Shown piece by piece: positions 1,421 through 57,376 of a stretch of DNA of 64,000 nt; position 1 is the first letter of the stretch; every line of letters begins with the position of its first letter. The stretch comes from a virus (taxonomy: Duplodnaviria > Caudoviricetes): positions 32,001-96,000 of the IMG/VR virus record IMGVR_UViG_3300031853_000003; one strand, given 5' to 3'. The notes under the pieces were generated by a model. That model was not told the DNA's origin. It was given only the letters and a program-made list of their open reading frames with translations, and made no database searches. The translations under genes and the position numbers were made by a program.

Positions 1421-1894
1421 ATGTTATCTGCTAGAATGGCCATGATGGTTGCTATTTCAGTTGCAAAAAGCTACACAAACAAAGAATGCGACAGAGTTGA
1501 GCGTGCTGGATTCAAAGCTGTTGTTATGCAGGATAGATCCATACTCCAGTCCACAGGACAGTATAAGATCCTATACTTCCTGCCGAAGACAACATCTAAG
1601 CCGCAAGACGGATATGATGAATTCATATACACATCGGATAACCAGTGGGAAGAGGTCGGTCATACAGATATAGACCTCTCTGCGTATGCTACTATGGAGT
1701 GGGTCGTTGATCTGTTGATGACCGCACATATTGACGAGAATGGGCACCTGCTTTTCACGCTTCCTGATGGATCAGACTTTGATGTCGGAAATGTTGTAGG
1801 TCCCCAAGGTGAGTCATATGTTCTGACTGAGAACGACAAGAATGATATTGCACAGATAGTGTATGATATGATGCAGCCGGAGGAAGAACCATGA
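1421..1894 (+). CDS. putative virion/fibre-associated protein
   Basis: WEEVG..DIDLSAYAT and GNVVGPQG segments typical of phage fibre proteins. Confidence 0.5.
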   Translation: MLSARMAMMVAISVAKSYTNKECDRVERAGFKAVVMQDRSILQSTGQYKILYFLPKTTSKPQDGYDEFIYTSDNQWEEVGHTDIDLSAYATMEWVVDLLMTAHIDENGHLLFTLPDGSDFDVGNVVGPQGESYVLTENDKNDIAQIVYDMMQPEEEP

Positions 1895-2148
1895 AACGAG
1901 TAATTACAGCATCAGCTAAAAGACGTTCTGCTATATGCGGACTTGCTGATATCAGCCCTGAGTCCAAGCGTACTGCAGCAGGACTTGCTGTCGGAGATTG
2001 CGTTTACGATGAAGATCTGGATACACTCTTTGTTGTAAGCAACATCGAGAGCGGCAAAGATGGGACCGTAGTAGTGACAGACGAAGAAGGCGAAACTTAC
2101 TACTACGATCCAAATGATACTCTGTATTGGCAGGCCAACAATCGTTAA
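1891..2148 (+). CDS. acidic protein with basic MKRVITAS leader (putative internal head protein)
   Basis: Leader matches the shared [IV]xA[AS] motif. Confidence 0.5.
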   Translation: MKRVITASAKRRSAICGLADISPESKRTAAGLAVGDCVYDEDLDTLFVVSNIESGKDGTVVVTDEEGETYYYDPNDTLYWQANNR

Positions 2149-2180
2149 ATCACACATCAAATTCTAAAAGGTGTGATAAC

Positions 2181-2624
2181 ATGTCGAAAACACTGCCTGT
2201 CCCTCGCATATCTGATTTTGAATCAACAGAGTACGGTCCGCTAGAGGTACAGCTTGAGAGCTTGGTTACATACCGGGCTGTGTACAAAGCATCAAACATT
2301 GTCCAAGATCGAACTCCTCTAATGGACTGTATGGTAGTTTCTGCACGTCGATATTTCAATCGAGTCAGCCCAGACCTGGAGAAATACGTCGATGTGTTTA
2401 TTGCAGGATATTCAGGATTTCATGCCCAGATGTTATTCTGCATAAACAAGTTTGTTGATATAATCAACAATGGTACTACACAAGAGAAATTTGAAGAGTA
2501 CGACAAGGCTCTGCATAATCTCACCAAACAATTCAGATGTATAATTCAGGCAGTAGCGGCCTGGGACAGTTATATCAAAACTCAATCGGAGGAGGATGAC
2601 GATGAAGCTATCAAAGAAGGGTAA
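2181..2624 (+). CDS. hypothetical protein
   Basis: TCGTTA motif at 2142 and AAGGTG SD. Confidence 0.6.
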   Translation: MSKTLPVPRISDFESTEYGPLEVQLESLVTYRAVYKASNIVQDRTPLMDCMVVSARRYFNRVSPDLEKYVDVFIAGYSGFHAQMLFCINKFVDIINNGTTQEKFEEYDKALHNLTKQFRCIIQAVAAWDSYIKTQSEEDDDEAIKEG

Positions 2625-3081
2625 GGCACATGTTCGGAATATGCTCGACAAGCTGTCCGTGTCCCTTGTTACAGACCAACCGGTTGACAAGTCATTCGTA
2701 GAGGATATGTATACACTTCTGTGTGATCTATACAACAGCGGAAGCGACGAAACGGTGGAAATTCCGACATCTGTGTTCAAGCTGATTCCATACATCTTGG
2801 AAGAATCTACGCTTGACAACTCATCGATCGCTAATCTGATCAACTGTATGAATCTTCGAGCTGAAGAGCTGATGTCACGTGGGGATGTGATGTCTGACCT
2901 GACATTGAAGTCTGGTATCAAGGCGATCAAAGATCTCAAGAGCAGACTTGATGCAGTCCGCAGTCTTGCACAGACATGTGTTACAGAAGCTGATCTGTCA
3001 GATGACACAACGGAGTATATCTTCACCGGAATGATGTCAGATCTCAATGTAGCGAAGAAATTACAATCTAAACTCGGCTAA
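2602..3081 (+). CDS. hypothetical protein
   Basis: GGAGGA SD; helical ORF. Confidence 0.6.
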   Translation: MKLSKKGKAHVRNMLDKLSVSLVTDQPVDKSFVEDMYTLLCDLYNSGSDETVEIPTSVFKLIPYILEESTLDNSSIANLINCMNLRAEELMSRGDVMSDLTLKSGIKAIKDLKSRLDAVRSLAQTCVTEADLSDDTTEYIFTGMMSDLNVAKKLQSKLG

Positions 3082-3147
3082 ACATATGGCAGCTCTGGCG
3101 AGTCTGGAGCTGCTTCGTTATGTTTGTTACACGGAGGTAAATCATCC

Positions 3148-3822
3148 ATGATAACAGAAAAAGACGTTAGACAGTTTATATCACAAAGTTCTGACATGGT
3201 CATTGAATTCGTACATGGGCGCGAGTACGTCAAGATGTTCGATGAAACAGGACGCCCTGTTCGACTCACATTGCTGACCGATGTTGTGCAAGAACTGCGC
3301 AGAGAGATGCACTGCGACCTCTCATTAGTATATACAGATCCAGGTTCGCTTGATGTCATATACAAATGCAATGAGTGCGGAACAGTCATCTACACAAATG
3401 ATGAGTATTATGATCCAAATCTTGTATGCCCTGTATGCGATCCTCGCTACTCACATAAGGTCAAGTATGACAAGACCGGAACCCTTGATAAGGTCTACGA
3501 GAAATCCTATCGACATTACAAGTTCGAGGAAGAGCGCATCAAACGCAGAGGTAAATTCGATTGGGAACTATTCAAGCATGAATTCTACTGGTTCCACAAA
3601 CATATCAAATGGTCATTTATTGTAGACGATCTGTATGGTCAGCATTTTCCGTTGAGAGGCCTAAGATTTGTCATACAGAGCTACGACCCTGACAGCGATA
3701 CTTATAACTATCACCAGCTTCCGCTGTCGATTCACTTCATCAGGGAGTTGCGAACTGGACGACGCAAGAAACAAGAGAACTTAGATTCGCAGATAGACGA
3801 AGTTCTAAAATTATTTGAATAA
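3148..3822 (+). CDS. zinc-ribbon hypothetical protein
   Basis: CNECG...CPVC; GGAGG SD; TCGTTA at 3115. Confidence 0.6.
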   Translation: MITEKDVRQFISQSSDMVIEFVHGREYVKMFDETGRPVRLTLLTDVVQELRREMHCDLSLVYTDPGSLDVIYKCNECGTVIYTNDEYYDPNLVCPVCDPRYSHKVKYDKTGTLDKVYEKSYRHYKFEEERIKRRGKFDWELFKHEFYWFHKHIKWSFIVDDLYGQHFPLRGLRFVIQSYDPDSDTYNYHQLPLSIHFIRELRTGRRKKQENLDSQIDEVLKLFE

Positions 3823-3837
3823 ATTTTAGAAAATCGC

Positions 3838-12515: not shown

Positions 12516-15500
12516 ATGGCACTTGTAGATGATTTTCCAAGGGGACAATCAAGTAATGGCAATAACACCGCTAACCCTAATTCAAAAGAATTCTTAGATT
12601 ATCTAAAATCAATAGATGATTCTCTAAAGCAGATACTCAAAGACGGGCAGAATATATCAGCAGCTAACGCACGTAATGCGATGCCGCGTAGAGAAGATTT
12701 CAGAGGTCGCCGATCAACAAATGGTTGGGGGCCTAATAGCTATGATATGCGGAACGCTCCTGGAAGGCGTAGACGTAATGTTCGTTCTTCAGTAGACTCT
12801 GCCACTGACGAATTCTTAGATGGTCTGAAAGATTCATTGCTTGATTCTGTAGTAGGATCAGAATTCAAGCGTGAGATCCGAGGTATGGTCGGAGACTTCG
12901 CAGATATGCTAGGAGTATCTATTCAAGATATTCCAAAGAAGCTGGGACAGGAACTCGGTAAACATCTACTTGAGAAGTTCAAAGACACTAAGACAGGTTC
13001 GTCTGTATTCCAGAAAGTCGAAGACGCTAAGAAGAATTCAACTGAATGGATCCGGAATAAATTCAATGAAGGCGTTGACAGATACAACAGAGAGCACTCA
13101 AAGCAACCTGATATTCCTGGAATTGGTCAACGTCATAACAATATTCATCCTGATCCAGGTCAGTCAGTTGCTGAAGCAGTAAATAACGCAGCTGGTCAAG
13201 CAGCTTCCAATGTAGGCCAAGTATCGGATTTCAACCAAGAATTGTTCAGCCGGCTCTTAGAGCTGTCTGTAGAAACAATGAATGTACATGCAGATGTAGT
13301 CAATCTGTATGGAGCGAAGGAAAATCTCCGAGAAGAGCGCGAACAGGAAGAGCGTCAAGAGCGTAGAGAAGATCGCACAGAGGATGAACGTAGAAAGCTA
13401 CCTGAGAAATCTCAGACCTCTCAGCAAGATATTCCGGATCAGGTATCTGATTTAACTGATACCATCACAGATCTATCAAACTCTAGCGAAACAAGTTTTG
13501 GAGATGTCGCTCCTGATGTAGCAGAGAGTGCGCTTAGTGGCGGAGAGGGCAGCGCAATAGAAGCTGCAGCAGAATCCGGTATGGCTGAAACTGCTGCGGC
13601 TGAAGGTGCTGGTATGGCTGCTGAAACAGGTGCAATGGCTGGAGCCGCCGAAGGCGCTGGAGCTGCACTTGCTGGATTAGGTGAAGTAGCTGCTGCAGCC
13701 TGTCCTTACATATTGATAGCTGTAGCTGCAATCATTGTAGTAACTAAGCTCATAGAGGCGTGCGGACCTGCAATCGAAGGCACCAAGAAGATGCTGAACG
13801 AGATGCAGCGTGCTGGTAATCGCTACAACGAGAGTCGTAAGAAAGCAGTTGAAGAAGAGAAGAAGCGTCTAGAAGCTGATGTGAAGACGCTGATAGAGAC
13901 TCCGTTTGAAATACTTCGAAAAGCTGCTGAGGAGATGTATTCTGTATGGGATCAAAACCTCAGAAAGATAAATGCTACTCAGGGCTACGACAAAGCTGAG
14001 CTACAAGAGCTGATTGGTTCATACGCAGAAAGACTTCGTAATGAGGGTCTGAGTGATGTAGTAAGTTCTTCGGATATTGCTAGTGAACTTGCGTCTGTAC
14101 TTGACGCAGGACTCAGCGGTAAGGTGGCCGAGGAATTTGCATATCAGGCAACAAAGCTCAATGCAGAGATTCCGACAGAAGACTTCTTGCAGTATGCAAG
14201 TAGTTATGCAGCACTTGCAGCTAACCAAATACGATTAGGCAAATCGCAGGAAGATGCAATAGCGTATGCCAATGCCCAACTAGAAGCTTTCGCTAGTAAC
14301 GTACTCTATGCGAGCCGTCAAATCTCGGGTGGTTTTACATCCGGATTAAAGAATGCTCAATCGTTATTTGAACAATCAGTAGAGATAGCCCAAGCAAGCC
14401 GAATAGGAGATCCTTCACAGATTTCTGGTGTATTAACATCTGTTGCAGCAATCACCGGTGCAATTGCACCAGATCTTGCAACATCGATGACTGATGCAAT
14501 CTACAAGGCAGCTACGGGTGGTAACTCATCTGAAATTGTAGCACTTCGTTCTCTTGCAGGTATCAATGCATCAAATACAGAGTTCCTAAGAGTACTTGCG
14601 ACTAATCCTCAAAAGGTATTCGCAGCATTATTCACAAAGCTCGCTGAATATCAGAATATGTCACAAAGCAACTATATGGAAGTTGCAGAAGGGCTGTCAA
14701 GTATATTCGGCTTGTCGATGGATGCTTTTGCAAGAATAGATTTCAACTACCTTGCACAAGCTGTTGCATCAATGCGTGTATCAGATGACGCATTGAATGA
14801 GAACCTGGCGCAGTTATCATCTGGTCAGACTACACTCACTGCTGAGCAGCTAAAGACACGCGAAATCAACAAGTACATGATTGAAAATGGACTTTCATAT
14901 GTACTTGATAATGAAGCAGCTAGAGCGATACAGCAGCATATGTGGGACGAGCAGCTTGCATTGCAGATGCAGGAAGCAACATATGCAGTTGATCTACAAG
15001 GTGCAGCTCTTGACTTCCTGGAAGGTATAAGAGAAACCATCTACAACATAATGAAGATACTCAACCCGCTGATGTGGTTCTCCGAGCTCGCTGATTTGAT
15101 TGGTACAGCTCAAGAAGGCTATGCACAGCAGGCTGATATTGTAAAAGTCCTAGAGATGGGCAAGGTAGGAGAAGGAAACACAAAATCTCTCTATCAGCTT
15201 ACAACTCGTGGTCAGTTACTTGATGTAGTAGACGATCTAGTGACAATGATGGGCGGAGTATCCTCTTATGGTGCTGCTCGTACAGGACGAATCGCTGGCA
15301 GAGATATTACACGCCTATTTACAAGTCCGCTGTTCGGGAGTATGTCATTGCTCAGTGATGCTGTATCGCTTGTAACAAATGCTTCGTTGAATGCAGCGAG
15401 TCAACGCAGCTACTCCAACAGAGAATTTGATTCTAATTATGCTTGGGGAACAATTGGTAAGAGTGTTGCTGCACAGATTTCAGCTTCTATGCCTAAGTCA

Positions 15501-16346
15501 AATCTGATCAGTGCAGTTTCATCAAGCAATCTGTCTGAAACAAATGTGTCTCAGAATGTTGCATCTAATAAGCTGAATCAGATGCTCGAAGATTCTTACA
15601 TGGTTGATGAATTCATCAATAAGGGTAAGAGTTATGATTCTTGGAAGAAGTCCGCTGTAAACTTCGGCATAGCTGATTTTGATGCTGCACTAGAAGCTGC
15701 AGGTTACACCGAACAGCAGTTGAAGAATAGATTTGAATCAAAGCAGACTGAGGAAGGTGCAAAAGAAGTAGCTGCTAGAGACGCAGACGAACAGGACTTC
15801 AGAGATAAGGGTCGTCAGTTCTGGATTGATGAAAGAGAATTCACAAGACAGATCGTCGAAGAGCTATTCCCTGCTGCGAACAGCAAGTTAGATTCTATCA
15901 TAACATTGTTTGAGGATTGGCACACGAAGTGGGATGAATTCAGAGATTACTTCAACTGGCACAACTTCTATGATGATTGGAATTCTGTATACTTGAATGG
16001 TAACAAGGGTTGGCTTGAATTCTTCACTAAGTTCAAATCATATTTCATTGACCATGAAGCTTACAACAATTCTTACAGCATTCAAGCTGTTCAAGAAGTT
16101 CAGCGTAAGGAGAGGTCAGGAAAAGACGAAGCTGTTCAGAAGCTCGCAGAGACGCTGTCGAAGAATATCACAGACCTCAGTGATCCGACAATGCAGACGA
16201 ACGCATTGTTGTCGCAGATCCTTATTCAAGTACTTGCTATTGTTGAGCAGAATAACAAGACCGCAGGTACAATCACGTTTGCAGACGCTATGTCAGCATT
16301 ATCGTTGGGTGGTACTACAGCTGCTACAACTACTGAAACAACCTAA
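12516..16346 (+). CDS. tape measure protein
   Basis: 1276 aa, Ala/Gly-rich, helical, with a hydrophobic segment; follows the chaperone pair. Confidence 0.75.
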   Translation: MALVDDFPRGQSSNGNNTANPNSKEFLDYLKSIDDSLKQILKDGQNISAANARNAMPRREDFRGRRSTNGWGPNSYDMRNAPGRRRRNVRSSVDSATDEFLDGLKDSLLDSVVGSEFKREIRGMVGDFADMLGVSIQDIPKKLGQELGKHLLEKFKDTKTGSSVFQKVEDAKKNSTEWIRNKFNEGVDRYNREHSKQPDIPGIGQRHNNIHPDPGQSVAEAVNNAAGQAASNVGQVSDFNQELFSRLLELSVETMNVHADVVNLYGAKENLREEREQEERQERREDRTEDERRKLPEKSQTSQQDIPDQVSDLTDTITDLSNSSETSFGDVAPDVAESALSGGEGSAIEAAAESGMAETAAAEGAGMAAETGAMAGAAEGAGAALAGLGEVAAAACPYILIAVAAIIVVTKLIEACGPAIEGTKKMLNEMQRAGNRYNESRKKAVEEEKKRLEADVKTLIETPFEILRKAAEEMYSVWDQNLRKINATQGYDKAELQELIGSYAERLRNEGLSDVVSSSDIASELASVLDAGLSGKVAEEFAYQATKLNAEIPTEDFLQYASSYAALAANQIRLGKSQEDAIAYANAQLEAFASNVLYASRQISGGFTSGLKNAQSLFEQSVEIAQASRIGDPSQISGVLTSVAAITGAIAPDLATSMTDAIYKAATGGNSSEIVALRSLAGINASNTEFLRVLATNPQKVFAALFTKLAEYQNMSQSNYMEVAEGLSSIFGLSMDAFARIDFNYLAQAVASMRVSDDALNENLAQLSSGQTTLTAEQLKTREINKYMIENGLSYVLDNEAARAIQQHMWDEQLALQMQEATYAVDLQGAALDFLEGIRETIYNIMKILNPLMWFSELADLIGTAQEGYAQQADIVKVLEMGKVGEGNTKSLYQLTTRGQLLDVVDDLVTMMGGVSSYGAARTGRIAGRDITRLFTSPLFGSMSLLSDAVSLVTNASLNAASQRSYSNREFDSNYAWGTIGKSVAAQISASMPKSNLISAVSSSNLSETNVSQNVASNKLNQMLEDSYMVDEFINKGKSYDSWKKSAVNFGIADFDAALEAAGYTEQQLKNRFESKQTEEGAKEVAARDADEQDFRDKGRQFWIDEREFTRQIVEELFPAANSKLDSIITLFEDWHTKWDEFRDYFNWHNFYDDWNSVYLNGNKGWLEFFTKFKSYFIDHEAYNNSYSIQAVQEVQRKERSGKDEAVQKLAETLSKNITDLSDPTMQTNALLSQILIQVLAIVEQNNKTAGTITFADAMSALSLGGTTAATTTETT

Positions 16347-16394: not shown

Positions 16395-19300
16395 ATGAAC
16401 ATATCTAAATTCCCTGTAATGAGTACTAACCTGTTTCCAGCTACTAACAGTACTGCTGGTGGTCAGCTCATTACAGAATTCAACTTAAAATCACGAGAAA
16501 CGGTCGGCACGGATCCAACTGTCGAATACAAAGTAGGTCCTTCATATACACACGCAATGAAGGATTTCAAGATAGGTCCTCAGACAGATGAATTCGGCAA
16601 TGTTGTTGCAAGCTCAGTACTTCAGATTGATGCAGGTAGAGCACTGGTTGACGGTTACTTCTTAGAGAGCCTCGCTCCTATAGTAATTGACCTCAATGAG
16701 CTGAATACACAGATTCTTGAAGCTAATCCATCTGCACAGAAGCTCGAAGGCAAGTTAGCTGTAGGGCTTCGTGCAATGTATTCAACAGAGGCTGCAATGG
16801 TTGGTACCATCAAAGTTGAGAATGACTCAACTGCACTATATGATGGTATCCAAGTAGTTATTCTGCCTGAGAGTCAGATGAAGCTGCCTCAGGATGTTCC
16901 TGCAGAGGGTTCAGAGTCACAGGTTACTGCACATCTCAAGCTAGGCTCATTCAGATACAGCCAGCATAACATATATGATGTACAGCAGAATTCTGAGAAG
17001 GTTAAGATCTTCACTGCCGACAGAATAAAGGACATTGATCAGCTGCTGGATAGTAGCTATGTCACCAAGACTGGTGTAGATCCTGATAAGCTGTATGTGC
17101 TTTCAGGTCGTGCAAACGAAGAAAATGCTGGTACCCCTTGGTGTGCTGCTAGTGACTCACTGATGATATGGGATGCAGACCCGACAAAGTTTGGAGCAGA
17201 CCTCAGTAGGTTCCGAACAGTTGCTGCTAATCCTGCTAGAGGAGCAACAGGTTTCATCTCTGATCTCGACGGTGGTAAGATCAAGCTTCGTGTAAAGCAC
17301 AAACAGGTAGACGGATCATCTCCATCAGATCAGTATGCTCCTGTAATATTTGAATTACCTGTTGCTGATTACGATGAAGGCACGCCTGGTACAATCAGCA
17401 AAGCTTACACAGATAAGATCAAAGAGATTTCAAAATCGTTCAACAAGCTGTATCAGATTCCTAACGGAACATATCTTGGATACATCGAATCACTTGATTC
17501 TGTCGAAAGTTTGCCGAAGCCGAAGGACAATCCTAACTGGGAGATCGGCAACTACTTCATCGTAGGTCAGGATAATACAGTCGGATATTCTGAACCTCCT
17601 GTAACAATGTACTTGGTACAGGGCGGAACAGTTCAAAGTATCGAAGCTGTTGAAGATGCAAAAGATGCTATGCTACAAAATGAAATTGTTGTAGCTAAGA
17701 AAGCTATTGCTGATTCTAAGAAGACTATCGCTGATTCTGCAAAGGAAGCAGTTGTAGCAGCTGCGGAAGTTGTTCAGTCTTCACTTGCTTCTAGAGATAA
17801 GTTAAGAGTACTTAGCGATTACGCAAAAGAATCTCAGGACTACGAATACGTAGAGAAGCTTAAAACTCTGCTTACTGCTGCATACAACAAAGCTGTAGAG
17901 ACTCAGGGCTATCTTGAGAACGCTGTTAAGAAGCTAAGGTCATCAGGCTCTTCCGAAGACGTAGATGATTATCTGACAACAGCTCATTCAAAGCTGGATG
18001 CTCTTCAGAGCAACGACACAGTAGAAACTAAGCTGAAGGAAATAAATATATCCGGTTCCACTAAGGCATGGCAATACCTCACAGATGCTGATGAAGCAAT
18101 CCACGGATCATCTAAGGGTGCAAATAAGAGCCTAGATGCAGCGATGGAACTGCTCAGTAGCTCCGGCAGTGAAGATGTTGCTTCAGCTCTTGCAAATCTC
18201 ATTTCTCAGTTACAGAACGGCGGAGATATGGACAGTGTAATTGCTCTTATCCGCAGATACTTAGTTGACTGGGACGGAGAGATGACAACCGTCTACGATT
18301 CAGCTGTTGCAGCATATGAATCTGCACTCTCTGAGTATGAAGCAAAATACATCGACTATCGAATTGCATTGATGATCTACTACAATGCACTTGTTTCACT
18401 CAACGGAAAACTTGCATACTTGATCTTCTCTGATCCGCCAGAGGGCATTGAGCTTGGCAGAAAAGAAGTTACCACAGACCCGACTACAATGTCTATCGAA
18501 GAGGTAGAAGAGCAGTGGCAGATTGCACAAGAAGGTATTATCTGTCCGTATTCAGGTAACGTAGGAAAAGATTACTTCACTCTTGTCTATCACAACCCAA
18601 CAAGTGATGAAGATACGTGTTTCTACTATGTAGTAACACAGGCAGGTGTCAAGAAGCTGTCTGATCCTATCATACTAACAAAGCAGATCAATCTCGCTGA
18701 GCAGAATATGGTAGGCGGCTTCTACAATGTACCTGATACAGCAACTGACAACGGTTATGTATATCTTGATGACACCGGTCATCTTCGACTTGTAGATTAT
18801 GCACTACTCCGTTCTGGTGTAGCAGCATATCAGTTGGGACAAGACATCTCAATTGAAGCAGGTCTATCTACTGAAGAATTACAGATCCAGGTAGACGATT
18901 ACATCAACGAAAGAATCGCCTTCCCGAATGCTTATCAGACTCAGAACAGTAAGTCACCTACAGTCATTCACGTTACGCTGAGCTTGACGAAGGAAGATAC
19001 TCCTAAGACACTCAATCTGTATAACATAGACAGCAGATTTGACACTTGTGTATATCTGCACATCACCGGTACTGCTGACTCTAAGACAACTATCAACATA
19101 ACCAACTGCCAGAAATTGAGAATTGATAATGCTATCGGCGGTGACGCAGAGAACGACAGCTATCCTATCATCAATCTCTATAACTGCAACCTCTTCTATG
19201 ATGTATCTATCCTGAAGAAGTTGACATCATGGGTAACCACACTGGATGAACATAACAATCTGGTGTCCGTCAAGCCTACAGTTTCTGGATTGAAGTTATG

Positions 19301-19859
19301 GTATGAAAGATATGGACTCACTGAGCCGAATCTTGTTGTCGACAACATGACTGTTCTCGATTGCGACGCACCTAAGACAGTAGAGGAACTCGATGCTTGG
19401 TCAGAGTCTCACCCTAACGACATCCATTACTTCTATTCACTGCGTAGCATCACATTTGATGATAAAGCAAACATCATCGGCTGTCAGATGCTTATCCGTA
19501 ATGACTCCACTACGCATAGTTCGGAAGGTAAGGTCATCATATCATCTGATTTCCGACTTCCACAGGGAAGTGGTCTCGAGTATCCAAATACATGTTTGAC
19601 CAAACCTCTGAAGATTACAGGCTCATTCATCAGCATGTATGTATCCGGAAGCACAAAACATCTCACAACGAGTGATTTCACAGCTGTTAGCCAGTACTAC
19701 GACAGGAATCTAGATGATAGCCAGATGGTCGGATCCATCGCTATCTTAGCAGACACCTCCTGGATCACTTCTATTCCGAGTAACATAACAATCAATGAAG
19801 AGGTTCCAGGTTGGGATAACAATACCTTCCACATTTTCTCAGGAGGGATAGTCACTTGA
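16395..19859 (+). CDS. large virion structural protein (baseplate/tail-associated)
   Basis: ACCTTATATA at 16351; LQIDAGRALVDGY motif; located in the tail cluster. Confidence 0.55.
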   Translation: MNISKFPVMSTNLFPATNSTAGGQLITEFNLKSRETVGTDPTVEYKVGPSYTHAMKDFKIGPQTDEFGNVVASSVLQIDAGRALVDGYFLESLAPIVIDLNELNTQILEANPSAQKLEGKLAVGLRAMYSTEAAMVGTIKVENDSTALYDGIQVVILPESQMKLPQDVPAEGSESQVTAHLKLGSFRYSQHNIYDVQQNSEKVKIFTADRIKDIDQLLDSSYVTKTGVDPDKLYVLSGRANEENAGTPWCAASDSLMIWDADPTKFGADLSRFRTVAANPARGATGFISDLDGGKIKLRVKHKQVDGSSPSDQYAPVIFELPVADYDEGTPGTISKAYTDKIKEISKSFNKLYQIPNGTYLGYIESLDSVESLPKPKDNPNWEIGNYFIVGQDNTVGYSEPPVTMYLVQGGTVQSIEAVEDAKDAMLQNEIVVAKKAIADSKKTIADSAKEAVVAAAEVVQSSLASRDKLRVLSDYAKESQDYEYVEKLKTLLTAAYNKAVETQGYLENAVKKLRSSGSSEDVDDYLTTAHSKLDALQSNDTVETKLKEINISGSTKAWQYLTDADEAIHGSSKGANKSLDAAMELLSSSGSEDVASALANLISQLQNGGDMDSVIALIRRYLVDWDGEMTTVYDSAVAAYESALSEYEAKYIDYRIALMIYYNALVSLNGKLAYLIFSDPPEGIELGRKEVTTDPTTMSIEEVEEQWQIAQEGIICPYSGNVGKDYFTLVYHNPTSDEDTCFYYVVTQAGVKKLSDPIILTKQINLAEQNMVGGFYNVPDTATDNGYVYLDDTGHLRLVDYALLRSGVAAYQLGQDISIEAGLSTEELQIQVDDYINERIAFPNAYQTQNSKSPTVIHVTLSLTKEDTPKTLNLYNIDSRFDTCVYLHITGTADSKTTINITNCQKLRIDNAIGGDAENDSYPIINLYNCNLFYDVSILKKLTSWVTTLDEHNNLVSVKPTVSGLKLWYERYGLTEPNLVVDNMTVLDCDAPKTVEELDAWSESHPNDIHYFYSLRSITFDDKANIIGCQMLIRNDSTTHSSEGKVIISSDFRLPQGSGLEYPNTCLTKPLKITGSFISMYVSGSTKHLTTSDFTAVSQYYDRNLDDSQMVGSIAILADTSWITSIPSNITINEEVPGWDNNTFHIFSGGIVT

Positions 19860-30830: not shown

Positions 30831-30872
30831 GCACCTTTAATAACATTAAACACTATGTATGGAGGTAACTGA

Positions 30873-32794: not shown

Positions 32795-32832
32795 TTACTA
32801 CCTTTTATACTCATGTATACATGAAGTAAGGA

Positions 32833-33108
32833 GTGATTGTGATGCCTGCAAATCGTCCATTGGTAGGTCAAGGTAAAGCTGTGATCGCAGATGAATATGA
32901 ACTTGAAAAAGACGCAGCAGGATTTACACATCCTAATCTGCACAGACGAATAGTAGACGATCCACTCCTGGAACCTGATGGTGTTGTTAGCAAGTCATAT
33001 GAATTAGAAATTCAAGGACTTGATTCATATAGAGCTGTTCATACAGCATATCACAATGAAGAAGAAACAAATGCTGATGGATCGCCTAACGAAGATGAAA
33101 CCCCGTAG
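32833..33108 (+). CDS. hypothetical late protein
   Basis: ACCTTTTATA at 32800; AAGGAG SD. Confidence 0.55.
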   Translation: MIVMPANRPLVGQGKAVIADEYELEKDAAGFTHPNLHRRIVDDPLLEPDGVVSKSYELEIQGLDSYRAVHTAYHNEEETNADGSPNEDETP

Positions 33109-38452: not shown

Positions 38453-38989
38453 ATGGCTAGTAAGACAGTTACTATCAAGTTTGTCGGCGTTCCTGCTGAT
38501 ATCGTGAGATCAGGCCTTGACATCTTCAATTCCTGGACTCCTTCCGGCGGTTATGCTGACTCTGATCCATATGCAAATGGCCAGTACACTCTGCTCACCG
38601 CAGCTCCTGCTGACTGGGCCACCAATTACAAGAACTATTTCACAAAGTCCAACGGCGCATATGTTCCCGTAACCGGCGACTCTGCTCCCACTTTCGGCAA
38701 TGGCACCTACTATGCCGCGACTGGCAAGTCCGTATATGCTACTCACGTCGGCAAGTTCGGCGAGATCGACTCCGCTGACTTCCTTAAGGGTCTTCTGCCC
38801 ATGGCGACCAGCCCGCAGCTTATCGCCCAGTTCGAGCGTGCTATCATCTCTGCTAAGAACGCAGCTGATGCAGGCACTACTGATCAGGGCATTTCGTTCA
38901 GCATCGGCGAGGATTACAAGGAAGAGCTCTACTGGTCTCAGATCAGCAACGGCGTAAAGGCTCAGGGCTTTACCGTAACCATCGCGTAA
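38453..38989 (+). CDS. putative capsid decoration/structural protein
   Basis: Directly after the capsid gene with the same biased codon usage; APADWATNYKNYF motif. Confidence 0.5.
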   Translation: MASKTVTIKFVGVPADIVRSGLDIFNSWTPSGGYADSDPYANGQYTLLTAAPADWATNYKNYFTKSNGAYVPVTGDSAPTFGNGTYYAATGKSVYATHVGKFGEIDSADFLKGLLPMATSPQLIAQFERAIISAKNAADAGTTDQGISFSIGEDYKEELYWSQISNGVKAQGFTVTIA

Positions 38990-39787: not shown

Positions 39788-40156
39788 ATGTTCATTCAGA
39801 GAAAGAGAATCGTAGCTGACGAAGAGCTTGATACTACTCCCGTTGCTACTGCTGATGTTGATCCTGAGGCTACTGACCTGCTGTTCGAGGCAGAGGACGT
39901 TGCCGAGCTCGTTGCCGAAGTTACCGGCGAGCCTGTTGAAGTTACCGTAGAAGACGATTCCGTCAAGTTCGCTGTCGGCGACGACGAGTTCCTGGTTGAG
40001 CCGGAAGGCGACGAGGAGATCCTCGAGGCTGTGAGACTGCCCCGCAAGAAGAAGGCTGTTGCCGCTTCTACTCGTAGACCTGCAAGACGCCCCGCTCCCG
40101 CGAAGAAGCCTGTGAAGAGCTCACGCACCATCCGCAAGGCTCCCGCGAGCAAGTAA
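39788..40156 (+). CDS. acidic/basic putative internal head protein
   Basis: MFIQRKRIVADEE leader, acidic core, basic tail. Confidence 0.55.
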   Translation: MFIQRKRIVADEELDTTPVATADVDPEATDLLFEAEDVAELVAEVTGEPVEVTVEDDSVKFAVGDDEFLVEPEGDEEILEAVRLPRKKKAVAASTRRPARRPAPAKKPVKSSRTIRKAPASK

Positions 40157-40228: not shown

Positions 40229-41296
40229 ATGAAGATACAATCTAGTGTGATCTCTGATCTCACAAAACTGCTTAAAACTGTAGCTGATTTCATATTCAAG
40301 GGAGTCGATATGCTCACTACAATGGGATATGAAACCATAGACGCGAAAGAACACAAGGACGGTTCCTATGAAATCAAGCACAAGTCCGAGGATGGGACAA
40401 TCGTCATTGAAAAGGGCAAGCCTATTAAGTGGGACGACAATGGTAAAGCAACTGTATACAACATCGTGCTTATCAATAAATCAAACAATAAATCAGCAAA
40501 GCTGAACAACATCTCTCAAGATGTCTTCAAGGACAAAGCTAAGTTCGAGAAGATGTTCGGTAATGCGCTGAATGAGATAGGAGCTGGACAATTCATCATG
40601 AATTCAAAGAAACTGCAAGTTACACTGAAGAAGGTAACATCTGGTACTGAAGCAACCATTGAGCTTACAGCTATCAATGCAAACTATGCGCCAGATGCTG
40701 CGTTAAGTGATCTTGACGCTATACTCTCTGACGACGAGTTCGCTGCTCAAATCACTGAGGAACCGGTGTCGTATGAGATTACAGACGAAGGTGAGTCTTT
40801 TGACATTGAGTCCATTGCATCTGTAGACACTGCATCGGCAGCGATCTCTGTATACAAGACTGCATTTGCTTTAGAGCAGAATCTTCGTTATGTCTATTTC
40901 GTATGTTCGGGTTCAGAGGTGGAGAATGTCCGTCACAGCATTGATCGAGTTCGCTGGATGGTTTCATCTATGGTAGATACTACTGCAGGATGGATCATCG
41001 AGAAAGACGGTACTATTCCGTATCCGCTGGAGTGTATGCAAGAAGGTGGCAGCGTAATCGACTGCTCACTCCCGAATGATGCACAAGCTATCCTGCGTCA
41101 GATTCAATCGGCTGTGTGGAATATGATTGCAATTCTCGATCTCAATCTTGTCAACTTCGACACCGACATGCAGGGCATGATCAACTGCTGGCTGAGAGAC
41201 TGCAAAGACCTTGCAGACCATGTTATCAAGCAGTATCTTGACGGCGGTACTCTTCCGAAAGATGAGATTGTAGCCGTTCCTACACTTATGCCCTAA
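40229..41296 (+). CDS. hypothetical protein with C-terminal degenerate Dps/ferritin-like domain
   Basis: NLRYVYFVCSG..V...H..ID......VD..A.WI.EKDG spacing resembles Dps HWNVxG...D.IAER. Confidence 0.45.
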   Translation: MKIQSSVISDLTKLLKTVADFIFKGVDMLTTMGYETIDAKEHKDGSYEIKHKSEDGTIVIEKGKPIKWDDNGKATVYNIVLINKSNNKSAKLNNISQDVFKDKAKFEKMFGNALNEIGAGQFIMNSKKLQVTLKKVTSGTEATIELTAINANYAPDAALSDLDAILSDDEFAAQITEEPVSYEITDEGESFDIESIASVDTASAAISVYKTAFALEQNLRYVYFVCSGSEVENVRHSIDRVRWMVSSMVDTTAGWIIEKDGTIPYPLECMQEGGSVIDCSLPNDAQAILRQIQSAVWNMIAILDLNLVNFDTDMQGMINCWLRDCKDLADHVIKQYLDGGTLPKDEIVAVPTLMP

Positions 41297-43431: not shown

Positions 43432-45192
43432 ATGAGTCTAGCAAACAAGAAGGGCGTTGACATCTCGTATGCAAACGGCAACATAGATCTTGCAAAGGTC
43501 AAAGCTGCTGGATATGAATTCGTCATGATACGTTGTGGCTACGGTGACAACTTAGCGTATCAGGATGACGACTACTTCGAGACCAACGTCGCAAAGGCTG
43601 AGAATCTCGGTATTCCGTGGGGTACATATCTGTTCTCGTATGCTTGTTCATCTGATCAAGCAAGGAACGAAGTTGCTCACGTGAAGAGACTTCTTGAAAC
43701 TGTAGCTAAGAAAGGCTACAAACCAACTATGCCAGTTGCATTAGACATTGAACCTACTTCATATGTCAAGAACAACGGCGGTTGGAACGCCTCAAACATC
43801 AACAATGTAACCACCATCTGGTTGGAGGAAATCGCTAAACTCGGTTACTACCCGATGATCTACACAGGTTATTCCGAGTTAGACAATTTCATGTCCAAGC
43901 ACGTCAGAGAAGATTTTGACTGCTGGTTTGCACAGTGGCACACTTCACCTGCTGATTACAAGTATAACAGACTTGGAATTTGGCAGTACGGCGGAGAGTA
44001 TAACGTCATCGACGGAAACTCTATCGCAGGTGTAGGTGTCATCGACAAGAATAAGTCCTATAAGGATTATCCGACGATCATAAAGAACGGCGGTTACAAC
44101 GGCTGGAAGAAATCTACTCCGACACCTACTCCGACACCTACACCTTCGTCAGGCATCACAGAAGCTCAACTTCGTCAGAAGGTCGCAAATGTTATGCTTG
44201 AATGGAAGAAGCTCAGTGACGCTGAGAAGACATCTACTGCACATGCAGAGATCATTAAGATCTACAATGCTCAGAAGCCACTACCTGTCGATTATGCGAT
44301 GAAGGATTCTGACGCATGGTGTGCTGCTACTGTATCAGCTGCCTGGCTGAAAGTCGGTATCGCTGAATATATCACAACCGAGTGCGGATGTGGTCGTTTC
44401 AGAGATAACGCCAAGAAGCTTGGTATCTGGATAGAGAATGATGCTTACAAGCCGAAGGTCGGCGACGCTATCATTTACTACTGGGGAGACGACGGTGTAG
44501 GTGACTGCGACTACGGTGCAGACCACATAGGTATCGTCACTGCTGTAAATGGTAACACGTTCACCGTTACAGAAGGTAACATGGGCAACGGCATTGTCGG
44601 CAACCGTTCAGTTCAAGTCAATGGACGTTTCATCAGAGGCTTCATTGCTCCTGACTACGCAGCAATTGCGAAGAAAGTCAACGGAAAGGTTACTCCTGAT
44701 CCTACTCCGTCTCCGACACCAACACCTTCCGTCGCTAAGCCTTCTATCACTATCCGAGGTGTTGCAAGCGGAAAATGGCTAGGCTACATCACAGATGGTG
44801 AAGACTATTCTGGTATCCTTGGAAACATGCTTGTTGCACTTGCAGCGAAAGTTACTAAGGGTAGCATCGAATATAGTGTCCACATCAGAGGCGGAAGTTG
44901 GCTTGGTAAGGTCACAGGCTTCGACGCAAATGACTATTACAACGGATATGCCGGTAACGGTAATCCGGCTACCAAGGGCAGCGCAATCGACTGCATCAAG
45001 ATGTACTACGATACACCTTCTGATGTTGTCAGTGCGTATGGTTACTACAAGGTAGCATATCAGGTACACGTACTTGGAGGCGGCTGGCTTGATTGGCAGT
45101 ACGATACCGAGACGACCGGCGGTCAGGACGGATACGCAGGATACTACGGTTGCATTATCGATGGTGTTCGTGCGAAGCTTGTCAAGGCCTAA
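43432..45192 (+). CDS. endolysin: GH25 muramidase + CHAP + ChW-like cell-wall-binding repeats
   Basis: GVDISY, LDIE, WQY; PT linkers; AWCAATVS..DHIGIV..EGN; Y.VH..GG.WL..GYAG x2. Confidence 0.85.
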   Translation: MSLANKKGVDISYANGNIDLAKVKAAGYEFVMIRCGYGDNLAYQDDDYFETNVAKAENLGIPWGTYLFSYACSSDQARNEVAHVKRLLETVAKKGYKPTMPVALDIEPTSYVKNNGGWNASNINNVTTIWLEEIAKLGYYPMIYTGYSELDNFMSKHVREDFDCWFAQWHTSPADYKYNRLGIWQYGGEYNVIDGNSIAGVGVIDKNKSYKDYPTIIKNGGYNGWKKSTPTPTPTPTPSSGITEAQLRQKVANVMLEWKKLSDAEKTSTAHAEIIKIYNAQKPLPVDYAMKDSDAWCAATVSAAWLKVGIAEYITTECGCGRFRDNAKKLGIWIENDAYKPKVGDAIIYYWGDDGVGDCDYGADHIGIVTAVNGNTFTVTEGNMGNGIVGNRSVQVNGRFIRGFIAPDYAAIAKKVNGKVTPDPTPSPTPTPSVAKPSITIRGVASGKWLGYITDGEDYSGILGNMLVALAAKVTKGSIEYSVHIRGGSWLGKVTGFDANDYYNGYAGNGNPATKGSAIDCIKMYYDTPSDVVSAYGYYKVAYQVHVLGGGWLDWQYDTETTGGQDGYAGYYGCIIDGVRAKLVKA

Positions 45193-47791: not shown

Positions 47792-48031
47792 ATGATGAAG
47801 CGTGTACGCACATATGTTAGATCTGCTGCTGATGACAGTGGTAAGACCAAACTTGATATCCTCATGGATTCACTCAAAGATGATTTCGACTATGTGATGT
47901 CGGGTCTTGATAAGCTTGCAAGAGACGGCGGTGAGTCCGAGAATTCTGGTACTACTATTGCTCAGGATCTTTCCGATACACTTCAAGGCGTTATTCAGAG
48001 AATCGCCGGAATCCAAGGAGGTAACCAGTAA
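47792..48031 (+). CDS. small protein with basic leader (putative internal head protein)
   Basis: MMKRVRTYVRSAADD; AGGAGG SD. Confidence 0.55.
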   Translation: MMKRVRTYVRSAADDSGKTKLDILMDSLKDDFDYVMSGLDKLARDGGESENSGTTIAQDLSDTLQGVIQRIAGIQGGNQ

Positions 48032-48837
48032 TGAGAATCACATCTGCCTCTAAACGTCCTATTCAGGACATTCGTGACGATATCGCTCGTCGCAAGAGAG
48101 AATACAACGAAGCAAGAGACCGCGTGCAAAAGGCTGATGAAGAGTCCAGCAGGGCTTTCCGCAGAGCTACACAGGAAGTCATTCAGCCTGTTATCGACGA
48201 GTTGAACGCAGCTTTTGAACAGTGGGAGACCATTCATCCTGAGATCACTGCCGATATCGGCTGGGGTGATGGATATGAGATCAGTATCCGTTGCGACCGT
48301 GGAAAGAATGCAAACAATGCTCTCCAGTGGACATATGACGTCAAGCTCAACGACGACGGTTCTGTTCGTGCAAAGACTTCATCTTGGTCAGGTCTTGACG
48401 GTACTACTGAGGCGCAGCTTCATTCTCTAGAGCAAGTTATCGCAGCTCTCAGATATCTCAATTCTCTTGATTGGGCAACTCTTCTTAACAAGCAAGTTCC
48501 TGATTACAATGATTTCCGTCACAACCTCACCAAACCTCCATTCGAGGACTTTGACCAAGAGCTAGCAGACGCAGAGCTTGCCGACTGCATCGGTGAAAAC
48601 AAACTCATTCGCGTCAAGCCTTGGGGAGAAACTTGTCCATATAGAAATGAGCTGTATATCCGCATCATCCGAGAAACTCCTTCACAGTATGTCATCAATA
48701 TCGTACCGACATATGCAGCACTCAGCAATAACAGGTCTGATATCGACAAGTATCTCGGAGACGATAAATACGACACATACAGGGTAAGAAAGACTTCTAT
48801 CAAGCCTGTGTTCCCTGTAGACACTATTGACCTATAA
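48031..48837 (+). CDS. hypothetical protein with MRITSAS leader
   Basis: Leader motif; coupled start. Confidence 0.55.
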   Translation: MRITSASKRPIQDIRDDIARRKREYNEARDRVQKADEESSRAFRRATQEVIQPVIDELNAAFEQWETIHPEITADIGWGDGYEISIRCDRGKNANNALQWTYDVKLNDDGSVRAKTSSWSGLDGTTEAQLHSLEQVIAALRYLNSLDWATLLNKQVPDYNDFRHNLTKPPFEDFDQELADAELADCIGENKLIRVKPWGETCPYRNELYIRIIRETPSQYVINIVPTYAALSNNRSDIDKYLGDDKYDTYRVRKTSIKPVFPVDTIDL

Positions 48838-53504: not shown

Positions 53505-53505
53505 G

Positions 53506-54393: not shown

Positions 54394-54424
54394 TCTTATA
54401 TAACAATGAAGGAGTTGATCTACA

Positions 54425-54652: not shown

Positions 54653-54664
54653 GGAGCGATACAC

Positions 54665-55363: not shown

Positions 55364-55374
55364 GAGGTAACTCT

Positions 55375-55617
55375 ATGCTGACTTTTGAATTTGATCATGT
55401 AGTTATCCGAGATCTTTCAGCTACTGGTGTTGCAATCTTCTTCGACGATAAGAACGGTAACATCATAAAAGCTAATTACTACTATAACACATTCAGAGAT
55501 AGAGCAGCTCTCAAAGAGGCTGTTCCGGCTGAGGCTTATCAGAGAATTCTCGACGTCTGGAGCAACTATCCTGTACTCAAAGATGATTGGATGACACATA
55601 GACCTACATGCAAATGA
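55375..55617 (+). CDS. hypothetical protein
   Basis: GAGG SD. Confidence 0.55.
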   Translation: MLTFEFDHVVIRDLSATGVAIFFDDKNGNIIKANYYYNTFRDRAALKEAVPAEAYQRILDVWSNYPVLKDDWMTHRPTCK

Positions 55618-55621
55618 TATC

Positions 55622-55654
55622 ATAAGGCGAGACGGCTGAATCTCGCCTTATTTC
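55622..55654 (+). terminator. terminator hairpin
   Basis: ATAAGGCGAGA...TCTCGCCTTAT followed by TT. Confidence 0.65.
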
Positions 55655-55704
55655 ATTGGTTGAACCTTAAATAGTATTACAACTAAGATTGGAGGACAAC
55701 CTTT

Positions 55705-56076
55705 ATGAACATAAAGAGATCACAACGAATCGTGGCTGCTGAAGGCGATGAGTTTGATGCAGATGACCTGATGTACGATGAAGACGAGAGCCTAAGCGAC
55801 ACTCTCGATGACGTTGCAGATACTGTCGAAGATATGCAGGACTCAATGGACGACATCCGAGAGGACGACGTCGATATTGAGGTTGACAACAACATCGCTG
55901 GTCACTACATCGCTGAGTGCGATAACTGCCACGGAGTATTCATATCAGCCGTTATAGAATCTGACCAGCATATTGATCATGTATCTGGCATATGCCCTCT
56001 GTGTGAAAAAGAATCAGATCAGTATCTGAAGTGGGTCATTTCAGCTGTCGAGGATAGAGATTCTGACGCAATGTAA
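55705..56076 (+). CDS. acidic zinc-ribbon protein with basic leader
   Basis: MNIKRSQRIVAAEG; CDNC...CPLC; ACCTTAAATA at 55664. Confidence 0.6.
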   Translation: MNIKRSQRIVAAEGDEFDADDLMYDEDESLSDTLDDVADTVEDMQDSMDDIREDDVDIEVDNNIAGHYIAECDNCHGVFISAVIESDQHIDHVSGICPLCEKESDQYLKWVISAVEDRDSDAM

Positions 56077-56088
56077 GGATGATTATAA

Positions 56089-56298
56089 TTGGACGCACCA
56101 TTCCATTTCACACCTTGCTGCATCTGCGGTAAGGACTTCATAAAGAGGCCAGGCCATATCTACAAAGTGCAGTTTGCAGGTAGGGTCGAATACTGCTGTT
56201 CATATACTTGCCACAACAAAGCAATGAAAGCAAAAGAAAACTCTAACAGCAGTATGTATACTCGCATACGAAAGGAAATGAATTCATCACATGAATAA
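56089..56298 (+). CDS. small zinc-finger (TRASH-like) protein
   Basis: CCICGK...YCCSYTC. Confidence 0.55.
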   Translation: MDAPFHFTPCCICGKDFIKRPGHIYKVQFAGRVEYCCSYTCHNKAMKAKENSNSSMYTRIRKEMNSSHE

Positions 56299-57376
56299 GG
56301 TAATAAGAGCAAACACGGAGAATGAACAACCAGTTACAACTCCTGAGATCGACAACTGGGAAGATTCGGAGCAAGAATTTTCATCTGAGAAGACATCTAT
56401 CAACAGCAACAAGCTGCCTGCGATATTCCGTCTGATCAAGAACTGGGCGTCAGGTACGCTGAATCTCGACTATGACGGCGGTAAGTTCGACAACGCATCA
56501 GAGTACCTTGCGGAGCTAGGTGTAACTAATCTCATCTATGATAAGTATAACAGATCCAGCGAGCATAACAACAGTGTAATTACACAGGTTCGACAGAACG
56601 GCGGAGCTGATACTTCTACGCTTTCAAATGTGCTCAACGTAATCAAAGAGAAGTCAGCAAGAATTGCTTGTCTGAAGAATATCCGTAATCTGCTGAAGCC
56701 TTCAGGCGTATTGTATGTCACAGTGTATGAGGGTTCCGGTACCGGAGAAGGGAAACCTACGTCGTCAGGCTATCAACGCAATCTCAAGACAGCGGGCTAC
56801 CTCGAAGAGATCCAAGAGATATTCCCGTCAGCATATCGCAAAGGTAAACTCATCATCTGCCCCATGCAGGAGTCTGCTAACAGCTCCAAGAAGATTGAAG
56901 CCGGTTGGGGAGTGTATGATTATCCCGAACCTCCTGATCCTAAAGAGTATCTGGAGAAGGATGATGTCGAGGACATAATCGACTTTGAAGTTGATGACAT
57001 CATCAACGTTGATGAGGACGGCGAGTGGGATTTTGAAACAGACGAGTTCCCTTGGCTCGAGCCTGAATACAATGACGGAACTTGGAGTTGCAGTGAGTAC
57101 CCAGGTATCGAGCTAGATGATGAAACCGGCGTCATTGAGAAGACATATGAATTGCTTGAGCCGTTCATTCCTGGATCCAAAGGTCGCTACAGAATCCGAG
57201 CTACTGTCACTCTCAGCTACACTGTTTCAGGTGTTGAGTACGAAATCACAGATCGTTGGACCGACGAGCGTCACGGAGACGACTGGGACGAAGAGGTCTA
57301 TACAGACAATGCCGAAGTTGAATACAACGAGAAGCTGTCAACTGTAGAAAATTTCCGATTCAGCGACGAGACGTAA
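56291..57376 (+). CDS. class I SAM-dependent methyltransferase-like domain + acidic domain
   Basis: LDYDGGKFD (motif I), IYDKY, SNVLNVI, LKPSG.LYVTVYEG, YQ. Confidence 0.65.
   Translation: MNKVIRANTENEQPVTTPEIDNWEDSEQEFSSEKTSINSNKLPAIFRLIKNWASGTLNLDYDGGKFDNASEYLAELGVTNLIYDKYNRSSEHNNSVITQVRQNGGADTSTLSNVLNVIKEKSARIACLKNIRNLLKPSGVLYVTVYEGSGTGEGKPTSSGYQRNLKTAGYLEEIQEIFPSAYRKGKLIICPMQESANSSKKIEAGWGVYDYPEPPDPKEYLEKDDVEDIIDFEVDDIINVDEDGEWDFETDEFPWLEPEYNDGTWSCSEYPGIELDDETGVIEKTYELLEPFIPGSKGRYRIRATVTLSYTVSGVEYEITDRWTDERHGDDWDEEVYTDNAEVEYNEKLSTVENFRFSDET

Follow-up and report, generated by a model that had tools for sequence, protein, structure and literature searches.

In the 64,000-nucleotide stretch analysed here (the window), which covers bases 32001-96000 of one 155,391-base contig from an uncultured tailed phage (IMG/VR record IMGVR_UViG_3300031853_000003), a prohead protease of the phage T4 gp21 family, the major capsid protein and a dispersed set of otherwise unrelated, putatively late proteins share a short motif. 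In this set, the motif ends a basic N-terminal leader, which an original prediction, made from the letters of the window, had read as a capsid-addressing and protease-cleavage code. The phage's own prohead protease is likely to recognise and cut at the motif, [IVL]-x-[ASG] with a small or acidic residue after it, and the leaders are likely to be propeptides of proteins located inside the prohead. The part of the original prediction that proposed a gp21-type protease with an altered, small-residue specificity, and the motif as its code, is well supported by comparative evidence, namely the fold, the catalytic residues, 110 capsid junctions, the replacement of Glu by Ala at homologous positions and a methyltransferase whose tag switches with the type of protease. 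What appears to be new is a propeptide and capsid-targeting processing of T4 type combined with a changed, herpesvirus-like specificity. Below, coordinates are those of the window and features lie on the plus strand, unless genome positions are indicated; an arrow marks the predicted cut, and P1 is the residue that precedes it.

The prohead protease and its scaffold tail

In the head module, a gene for a 463-residue protein (35439-36830) is located immediately upstream of the gp23-family capsid gene (36877-38355). The gp21-type domain occupies approximately residues 1-160, and because the C-terminal 300 residues match coiled-coil proteins, the gene is read as a fusion of a prohead protease with a scaffold. 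The protease is a member of the gp21 family of T4. It matches Pfam PF03420 (Peptidase_S77) with 25.2 bits, below the gathering threshold of 27 (E 1.4e-5), and gp21 of KVP40-like and XacN1 phages in tblastn. With an AlphaFold2 (AF2) model of residues 1-180 (predicted local distance difference test, pLDDT, 69.6), the top Foldseek match is T4 gp21 (5JBL; E 5e-5, probability 1.0, template modelling score 0.55-0.62); herpesvirus proteases are weak matches (E 0.06-0.6), well behind T4 gp21. Searches of Protein Data Bank sequences with the protease sequence and two profiles returned coiled-coil proteins or nothing, and the link to T4 gp21 comes from the fold search and from hhalign. The latter aligns His65 (nucleotides (nt) 35631-35633) and Ser120 (nt 35796-35798) with the catalytic residues H85 and S140 of T4, named in PMC12991175. 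Both are invariant in eight orthologues and nearly so in 133 representatives.

The motif recurs along the whole protein. The N-terminal leader MNRKKVTA↓A (35439-35462), an extension present in some orthologues and missing in others, has its analogue in the stretch of nine N-terminal residues that gp21 of T4 cuts off its own chain (PMC9958956). In the T4 gp21 structure 5JBL, an N-terminal L-I-E peptide of the protein itself fills the active site. At the end of the protease domain, hhalign puts V160-A-A162↓S163 (35916-35924) on I-T-E-S of T4 gp21, and at this aligned column the protease domain is predicted to cut itself off from the scaffold tail. In the AF2 model the segment falls in a linker (residues 148-164) of low confidence, as expected of a linker. 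At seven tail positions, [IV].[AS] is conserved in at least six of the eight orthologues, while no other of 121 residue-class pairs is conserved at more than three. Among these positions are VCA 175-177 (nt 35961-35969), IAA 332-334 (nt 36432-36440), VTA 357-359 (nt 36507-36515), VTA 412-414 (nt 36672-36680), which lies 49 residues from the hydrophobic C-terminus, and ISS 425-427 (nt 36711-36719); at another, near residue 186 (within 35961-36719), the phage itself has ITM, which is not a match. The tail sites to which the original prediction had pointed are present and conserved, and the excess of the motif over shuffles is the highest in the genome (11 versus 3.9 expected, z 3.8), with the capsid protein (z 2.9) also among the highest.

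The predicted capsid propeptide

The major capsid protein, of the gp23 family (492 residues, 36877-38355; Pfam Gp23, 6.7e-16), starts with a basic propeptide (residues 1-79, 36877-37113) carrying the motifs VMA 23-25, ITS 29-31, ILA 51-53 and ITA 77-79. When homologues are aligned, the conserved part sets in exactly behind the last copy of the motif. Across 110 distinct junctions, position -4 is I or V in 100%, position -3 mostly T or M, position -2 A or G and position -1 an invariant A, after which comes an invariant TNT, in the form TNT-[ST]-NI. The propeptides upstream of these junctions, of about 70 residues, are basic and diverged and contain a mean of 4.5 motif copies, some of them at aligned positions; the propeptide sites listed in the original prediction are among those that are present and conserved. 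The likely cut is [IVL]-x-[ASG]↓x, because the P1 Glu of T4 aligns with the third motif position, and with a cut at that place the capsid protein would therefore mature to Ala80, the predicted N-terminus of the mature protein (ATNTSNI...). Comparison of the capsid profile with T4 gp23 by hhalign gave a weak local match (E 0.13), which does not allow the cleavage site of T4 to be positioned against that of the phage.

A probable change from Glu to small residues at P1

Searching 1.84 billion representative proteins with a profile retrieved 79 full-length cluster representatives of the clade to which the protease belongs and, clearly separated from it, a next-nearest group of 54, referred to as the sister clade. 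Alignment of the two suggests that the clade protease has departed from cleavage after Glu in (I/L)-x-E. At the domain boundary, [IVL]-x-A↓[SA] is found in 80 of 80 proteins (the 79 representatives and the 35439 protein), and the conserved capsid and scaffold sites are likewise without Glu; in the sister clade, P1 is E in 52 of 54 representatives, with the pattern [ILVM]-x-E, mostly followed by S, and E is also found in T4 and in Bacillus phage HSE3. The tails differ in the same direction, those of the clade having 2.59 [IV].[AS] versus 0.61 [ILV].E sites per 100 residues and those of the sister clade 0.49 versus 2.33. Sister-clade proteases also begin with leaders of the MSK.LL.E type. The distant cultured relatives, Bacillus phage HSE3 and Listeria phage LIS04, do not have the small-residue code and look Glu-type.

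The sole conserved residue that separates the clade from all Glu-type proteases examined is the one at His+4, counted from the catalytic His. It is Arg in the sister clade (98%), in T4 (Arg88), in HSE3 and in LIS04, and Pro, V or another small non-basic residue in the clade (Pro69 here, nt 35643-35645). Since the loss of Arg at this position together with the loss of a negatively charged P1 is what would be expected of a specificity pocket, His+4 is a candidate determinant, and the loss of its Arg may have caused the change at P1.

The protein encoded at 56291-57376 links the leaders to the type of protease. Its 361 residues comprise the leader MNKVIRA↓N (nt 56291-56311), a domain resembling class I S-adenosylmethionine-dependent methyltransferases and an acidic C-terminal part; most homologues have a precomputed PF13489 assignment, and the ESM Atlas gives Methyltransf_23 clusters at 0.94. 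An [IVL].[AS] leader is found in 60 of the 120 closest homologues, while the starts MRFKLIE↓S and MNLFE↓N occur in several others. One 147-kb phage with an MRFKLIE↓S methyltransferase has a protease with Arg at His+4, an M-V-E↓S boundary and ten Glu-type versus one Ala-type site, and the genes neighbouring its methyltransferase also have hydrophobic-x-E leaders (L-x-E). The last residue of the tag follows the protease type, and the tags are therefore linked to the protease and not to another reader. In the same Glu-type phage (L044:7352-10705), small genes starting with MKFRLVE, MRFKLFE and MRFKLIE adjoin the portal gene and look like a T4-like tag set of Glu type.

An A-x-E rule, as in phages phiKZ and SPN3US, was also considered because AAE or ADE follows some leaders. 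It was rejected, as conserved capsid, boundary and tail sites are without Glu and the orthologues of the 39788 protein keep [IV]-x-A and not A-x-E.

Basic leaders on putative late proteins

In the whole genome, 23-24 of 198 proteins contain [IV].[AS][AS] within their first 15 residues, compared with 8.7 predicted from interior windows and 8.0 +/- 2.6 in shuffled N-termini, so that the enrichment anticipated by the original prediction is confirmed. When an upstream K or R is required in addition, 26-27 proteins are found versus about 7 expected (p 6e-9). In the window, the leader pattern occurs in 10-12 of 86 proteins (3-4 expected), and spurious minus-strand open reading frames (ORFs) have it in 3-4% of cases versus 12-14% of real genes. 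A blind scan of reduced-alphabet patterns in N-termini, of which 341 had enough matches to be scored, placed only pieces of the leader in its top ranks, IV-x-AS-AS being the best pattern without K/R (p 8e-6). The leader proteins give no BLAST matches among themselves and are not paralogues; codons vary between their genes, and the A/S positions use GCN and TCN codons. On these two grounds the signal is placed at the level of protein and not ascribed to paralogy, and a signal at the level of DNA was rejected, since the codons differ.

Altogether about 18-22 otherwise unrelated, putatively late proteins carry a basic leader of 5-16 residues ending in the motif, with ten of them in the window. 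Leaders fall into the types MKRV-I-x-A, MKR-x-FTK-x-P-V-T-A and M-[KR]-I-x-[AS]. Further tagged genes occur beyond the window, nine of them in a cluster at genome 21.7-28.4 kb that forms the main group and includes a GTG-started gene at 27525. A cluster of eight genes just upstream of the window is variable and without orthologues in relatives; for one cluster protein, g22826, five related genomes contain no homologue, which fits a variable cargo locus. The tagged proteins are mostly acidic, and Pfam and PHROG searches with them were mostly empty.

The enrichment is reproduced in relatives. Eight non-redundant related loci have the leader pattern in 23 of 151 proteins (7 expected), a complete 144-kb relative in 15 of 175 (p 9e-4) and a complete 200-kb relative in 53 of 285 (p 7e-26); in the last, the leader proteins still represent 41 families after one paralogue family of 16 members has been collapsed. 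In three genomes, the Ala/Ser position of the motif peaks at residue 5, in leaders of the MKIYA type, or at residue 7, in those of the MKRVIxA and MK-x-YI-x-A types. The expectation that leaders would be conserved in homologues is borne out, as all eight leader-gene groups with orthologues in relatives keep a motif-ended leader, with differing length and sequence. The tagged set of the 200-kb relative includes BspA-type leucine-rich repeat (LRR) proteins and one weak phosphoribosyltransferase match. The collapsed family (L028-L037; for example genome positions 114336-116594 and 137594-140040) is the largest tagged family, and its 16 members of about 110 residues all start with MKIYA[ST] and have a block of the G-K-D-L-W-V-K-V type.

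Late-promoter-like motif

The motif ACCTTNNATA, resembling a late promoter, occurs 15 times in the window versus 1.8 expected and, genome-wide, 26 times on the plus strand versus 4 times on the minus strand. Of the 13 plus-strand copies in the window, one is at 32800-32809 and the others, all sequence matches of the same kind, start at 1181, 11402, 16351, 26711, 30833, 36412, 40159, 42092, 43116, 47365, 55664 and 62818. Most are 30-85 nt upstream of structural and leader genes, and sheath, tube, baseplate and head genes are also preceded by the motif. Leader genes are enriched downstream of it (odds ratio 3-4, p about 1e-3), which agrees, as far as a sequence association can, with the earlier observation that they follow a late-type motif.

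One copy, ACCTTAAATA at 36412-36421, lies within the gene for the protease-scaffold fusion and 465 nt upstream of that for the capsid protein, where it could give rise to extra capsid transcripts. Its position recalls the nested scaffold expression of herpesviruses; no obvious in-frame start is seen after it, and no nested in-frame scaffold gene, a herpesvirus feature, was found.

Tagged genes of the window

Among the ten genes that the original prediction had listed as examples, eight do have a leader at their start. The first encodes an acidic protein of 85 residues (1891-2148) with the leader MKRVITA↓S (nt 1891-1911) and no Pfam or PHROG family. In the head module, the very acidic protein of 315 residues at 33120-34067 (isoelectric point 4.1) has the leader MKVLRRSITA↓AEDD (nt 33120-33149). 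Its orthologue in the 200-kb relative starts with MKRKYIQS↓AESDY, followed by the same conserved body (here MKVLRRSITA↓AEDDY), and the gene is an accessory insertion in the module, absent from that position in other loci. The gene just before it encodes 88 residues (32842-33108) and has, with moderate confidence, a candidate longer leader ending in AVIA↓DE (nt 32842-32889); [IV]-x-A is kept at the aligned place in three of five orthologues (AVLA↓T, AVIA↓T and YIA↓T), the other two having PA. Downstream of the capsid gene, an acidic protein of 122 residues (39788-40156) starts with MFIQRKRIVA↓DEE (nt 39788-39817); orthologues have RIMA↓DEE, RVMA↓DTD and RVMA↓ETE, and that of the 200-kb relative has three tandem sites.

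Two genes follow each other at 47792 and 48031. The former encodes 79 residues (47792-48031) with the leader MMKRVRTYVRS↓AADD (nt 47792-47824), matched in orthologues by MYRYIKA↓AEE, ...GIKA↓SEKE and MKIISKIIA↓TSE; the latter encodes 268 residues (48031-48837) with the five-residue leader MRITS↓AS (nt 48031-48045), matched by MKIYS↓S and MKKFIRA↓A. Close to the methyltransferase gene, a very acidic protein of 123 residues (55705-56076; 30% D+E) has the leader MNIKRSQRIVA↓AEGDE (nt 55705-55737). Its start is 41 nt downstream of ACCTTAAATA, and orthologues begin with MNLKHTKIMA↓ADD and MRINKKSKKIFA↓ADE.

The two other examples found no support. The gene at 40229-41296, listed for its start MKIQSS, is doubtful as a tagged gene, since orthologues start differently and have no leader, while a VIS/ILS segment aligns inside the conserved body. 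The gene at 21909 (MKRVINMN, DUF5662) has no A/S at the expected place, and its orthologue is without a leader. Internal sites had also been claimed for the acidic proteins at 48851, 49567 and 56291; they are present but not enriched over shuffles, and the claim found no support. As for cargo that would include enzymes, this part of the original prediction is represented in the window by one protein, the 56291 methyltransferase.

Proposed maturation pathway and alternatives

The processing suggested by these comparisons would take place inside the prohead. The protease would remove its own 8-residue N-terminal peptide, free itself from the scaffold at V-A-A↓S, cut the scaffold tail at several conserved sites and chop the basic 79-residue capsid propeptide into short pieces, exposing Ala80. 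The leaders would be propeptides trimmed at the same place. Some of the tagged proteins are probably core or scaffold parts, and such core parts would, by analogy with T4, probably be degraded. The 56291 methyltransferase and the products of the variable cluster upstream of the window would probably be cargo retained in the head, which may enter the host with the DNA. That the leaders, which are short, basic and hydrophobic, mark head-internal proteins is plausible on the T4 model; from the same analogy we infer that the tags may direct packaging and, one step further removed, that tagged proteins may be injected. The scissile bond, the cleavage, capsid targeting and injection are thus what we infer from the comparisons described above.

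Several points weigh against this interpretation. The whole case is built on sequence comparison, and the role of His+4 in binding the P1 side chain is presumed from an alignment column. Enzyme and substrates switched, in essence, in a single evolutionary event, so that the large counts do not amount to independent observations. A motif this short is also common (0.73 per 100 residues genome-wide), and single sites, internal ones above all, can therefore not be assigned confidently. For most tagged proteins, no function is recognisable with Pfam or PHROGs. Leaders of 5-7 residues may be too short to contain targeting information, so that they might be trimmed without directing anything.

This last point is taken up by the alternative in which the motif is a protease site but the tagged proteins are assembly parts only, trimmed or degraded, with no delivered cargo and no addressing role. 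We give it a small but real chance. T4 gp21 also processes gp22, gp67, gp68 and gp24, none of which is injected (PMC9958956). Several tagged proteins are small, very acidic and encoded in the head module (33120, 39788 and 55705), and the leaders are very short, with P1 peaks at residues 5 and 7. However, a conserved methyltransferase is found among the tagged families, as are the BspA-type LRR proteins of the 200-kb relative, and the set is large and variable, with the 41 families of that relative and a cluster without orthologues, which is more like the internal-protein loci of T4 than a fixed assembly kit.

Two other explanations leave the protease aside. The tags might be read by another machine, such as a ClpX-like unfoldase or host N-terminal recognition, their likeness to the capsid and scaffold sites being coincidental. 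N-termini of the form Met-basic-hydrophobic-hydrophobic do resemble one class of ClpX recognition signals, but the tag ends in the exact motif of the capsid junction and of the protease boundary, and in other phages its last residue switches from A/S to E with the protease type, which an unrelated reader would not predict; this explanation is very unlikely. Slightly less credit still is due to the view, already disfavoured, that the pattern is chance or a by-product of start-region composition, in which A-rich codons yield Lys, Arg and Ile, and has no function. K/R are often enriched right behind Met in bacterial and phage proteins, and this enrichment prevails among the top patterns of the blind scan, yet the 23 proteins seen clearly exceed the 8.0 +/- 2.6 of the shuffles, the A/S residues come from GCN and TCN codons and the codons vary. 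Moreover, orthologues retain the motif although its distance from the start varies, and the pattern is replicated in other genomes and is not a feature of spurious ORFs. Recognition by the prohead protease is thus retained as the likely explanation.

Comparison with known systems

In T4, the first ten residues of the internal protein IPIII (MKTYQEFIAE) direct it into the core of the prohead and also contain the cleavage site. As in the phage described here, the capsid-targeting sequence (CTS) of T4 is a short N-terminal peptide found on unrelated proteins and ending in the protease motif; IPII and IPIII both start with MKTYQEFIAE↓ (NC_000866). Variable internal proteins of related phages share CTS-type tags, and their cargo loci are variable (PMC9026906). 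The proteases of the two phages are of the same family and have the same catalytic residues, and removal of a capsid propeptide and trimming of the ends of the protease belong to both systems, as predictions in the present one. The differences are several. In T4, P1 is Glu (gp21, IPI-III, Alt, gp22, gp23 and gp24), whereas here it would be Ala, Ser or Gly. The leaders can be as short as 5-7 residues, protease and scaffold are fused and not separate as gp21 and gp22, the capsid propeptide is basic with several sites, and the tagged set is larger, amounting to about 10% of the genes in this phage and, in one relative, to as much as 18%.

The proteases gp175 of phiKZ and gp245 of SPN3US, which recognise S/A/G-x-E or A-x-E, are likewise related to gp21; they process numerous proteins of the head and of ejection, act on multi-site propeptides and cut their own C-terminus (PMC5694885, PMC10052503). 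Multiple sites inside the head propeptides of these giant phages were found by mass spectrometry, and the enzymes of T4, phiKZ, 201phi2-1 and SPN3US all cut C-terminal to Glu (PMC5694885). For gp21-type proteases characterised so far, cleavage after Glu is the stated rule (PMC5694885). In contrast, Glu is missing from the conserved sites of the present clade, and literature searches found no description of a gp21-type protease that cuts after Ala.

The same site rule appears in herpesvirus assemblin, which recognises (V/L/I)-x-A↓S/T, as in YLQA↓T and VQA↓S of pseudorabies virus (PMC4498786). The layout also seems to match that of the pUL26 type, with an N-terminal protease, a release-like V-A-A↓S at 160-163, a scaffold and a maturation-like VTA at 412-414; the herpesvirus site is about 40-50 residues from the C-terminus. 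The herpesvirus protease fold is distantly shared, as the weak Foldseek matches indicate, but sequence and fold are much closer to T4 gp21, and N-terminal tags on many cargo proteins are a phage feature here and not a herpesvirus one.

Genome setting and neighbouring genes

The ends of the contig share 127 bases (genome 155265-155391 = 1-127), and the molecule is therefore a circle of 155,264 bp or else linear and permuted. Nearly all genes lie on the plus strand, with strong AGGAGG ribosome-binding sites. The source samples also contain contigs nearly identical to this one. Megablast of the head module against public phage records found no close relative, while for the capsid protein there are at least 854 homologues in metagenomes at E <= 1e-20, mostly 60-65% identical, on contigs that reach about 210 kb; one of them is from a Clostridium metagenome-assembled genome. 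An ORF of 501 codons for the portal straddles the contig junction; it has a TTG start candidate at genome 154617 and a V-V-S-G motif near residue 27.

Two paralogous genes resembling HNH/homing endonucleases (genome 6079-8088, 669 residues, and 30522-32177, 551 residues, the latter ending at window position 177) are 39% identical, have Cys-rich N-termini and are inserted within the structural gene region; in relatives, such copies directly follow the capsid gene. Downstream of the capsid gene, a protein of 178 residues (38453-38989) has a segment of about 50 residues in common with a 1266-residue protein (genome 109676-113476) and a sheath-like protein (genome 3914-5989), and this segment is probably an immunoglobulin-like or decoration module. 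Two very large ORFs (12516-16346, 1276 residues, and 16395-19859, 1154 residues) have no PHROG match and may encode a fibre or an internal giant protein; the second follows a ACCTTATATA motif and its start, MNISKFPVMS↓T, is a weak leader match. Cell-wall hydrolase domains are found in three genes (24434-25648, 25641-27701 and 43432-45192), two of which are endolysin-like, the third domain being inside a tail or tape-measure-like protein of the baseplate region.

Significance

The broadest form of the proposal concerns an uncultured clade of myophages of 120-210 kb, probably infecting Clostridia and known from at least 854 capsid homologues. In this clade, the gp21-family protease would have moved from Glu to Ala, Ser or Gly at P1, maybe through the loss of the Arg at His+4, and would have acquired a herpesvirus-like site rule and layout, while a tag of 5-16 residues would load 10-20% of the proteins, including a methyltransferase, into the capsid. 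Taken as a whole, this proposal has in our judgement an even chance of being right. A natural gp21 lineage that cuts at small residues, with a candidate determinant visible in the alignment, would give a handle on substrate choice and bears on the kinship between the maturation proteases of phages and those of herpesviruses. A tag and a protease that form an orthogonal pair are also a possible tool for packaging proteins in capsids. Some phage-defence systems that signal through cyclic oligonucleotides (CBASS) sense T4 gp21 via I/L-x-E loops (PMC12991175), and, more speculatively, a changed specificity could help phages to evade host sensors of Glu-specific head proteases. If the interpretation is true, the encapsidated and possibly injected proteome of the clade would be readable from sequence, for hundreds of uncultured gut-type phages without virion proteomics.

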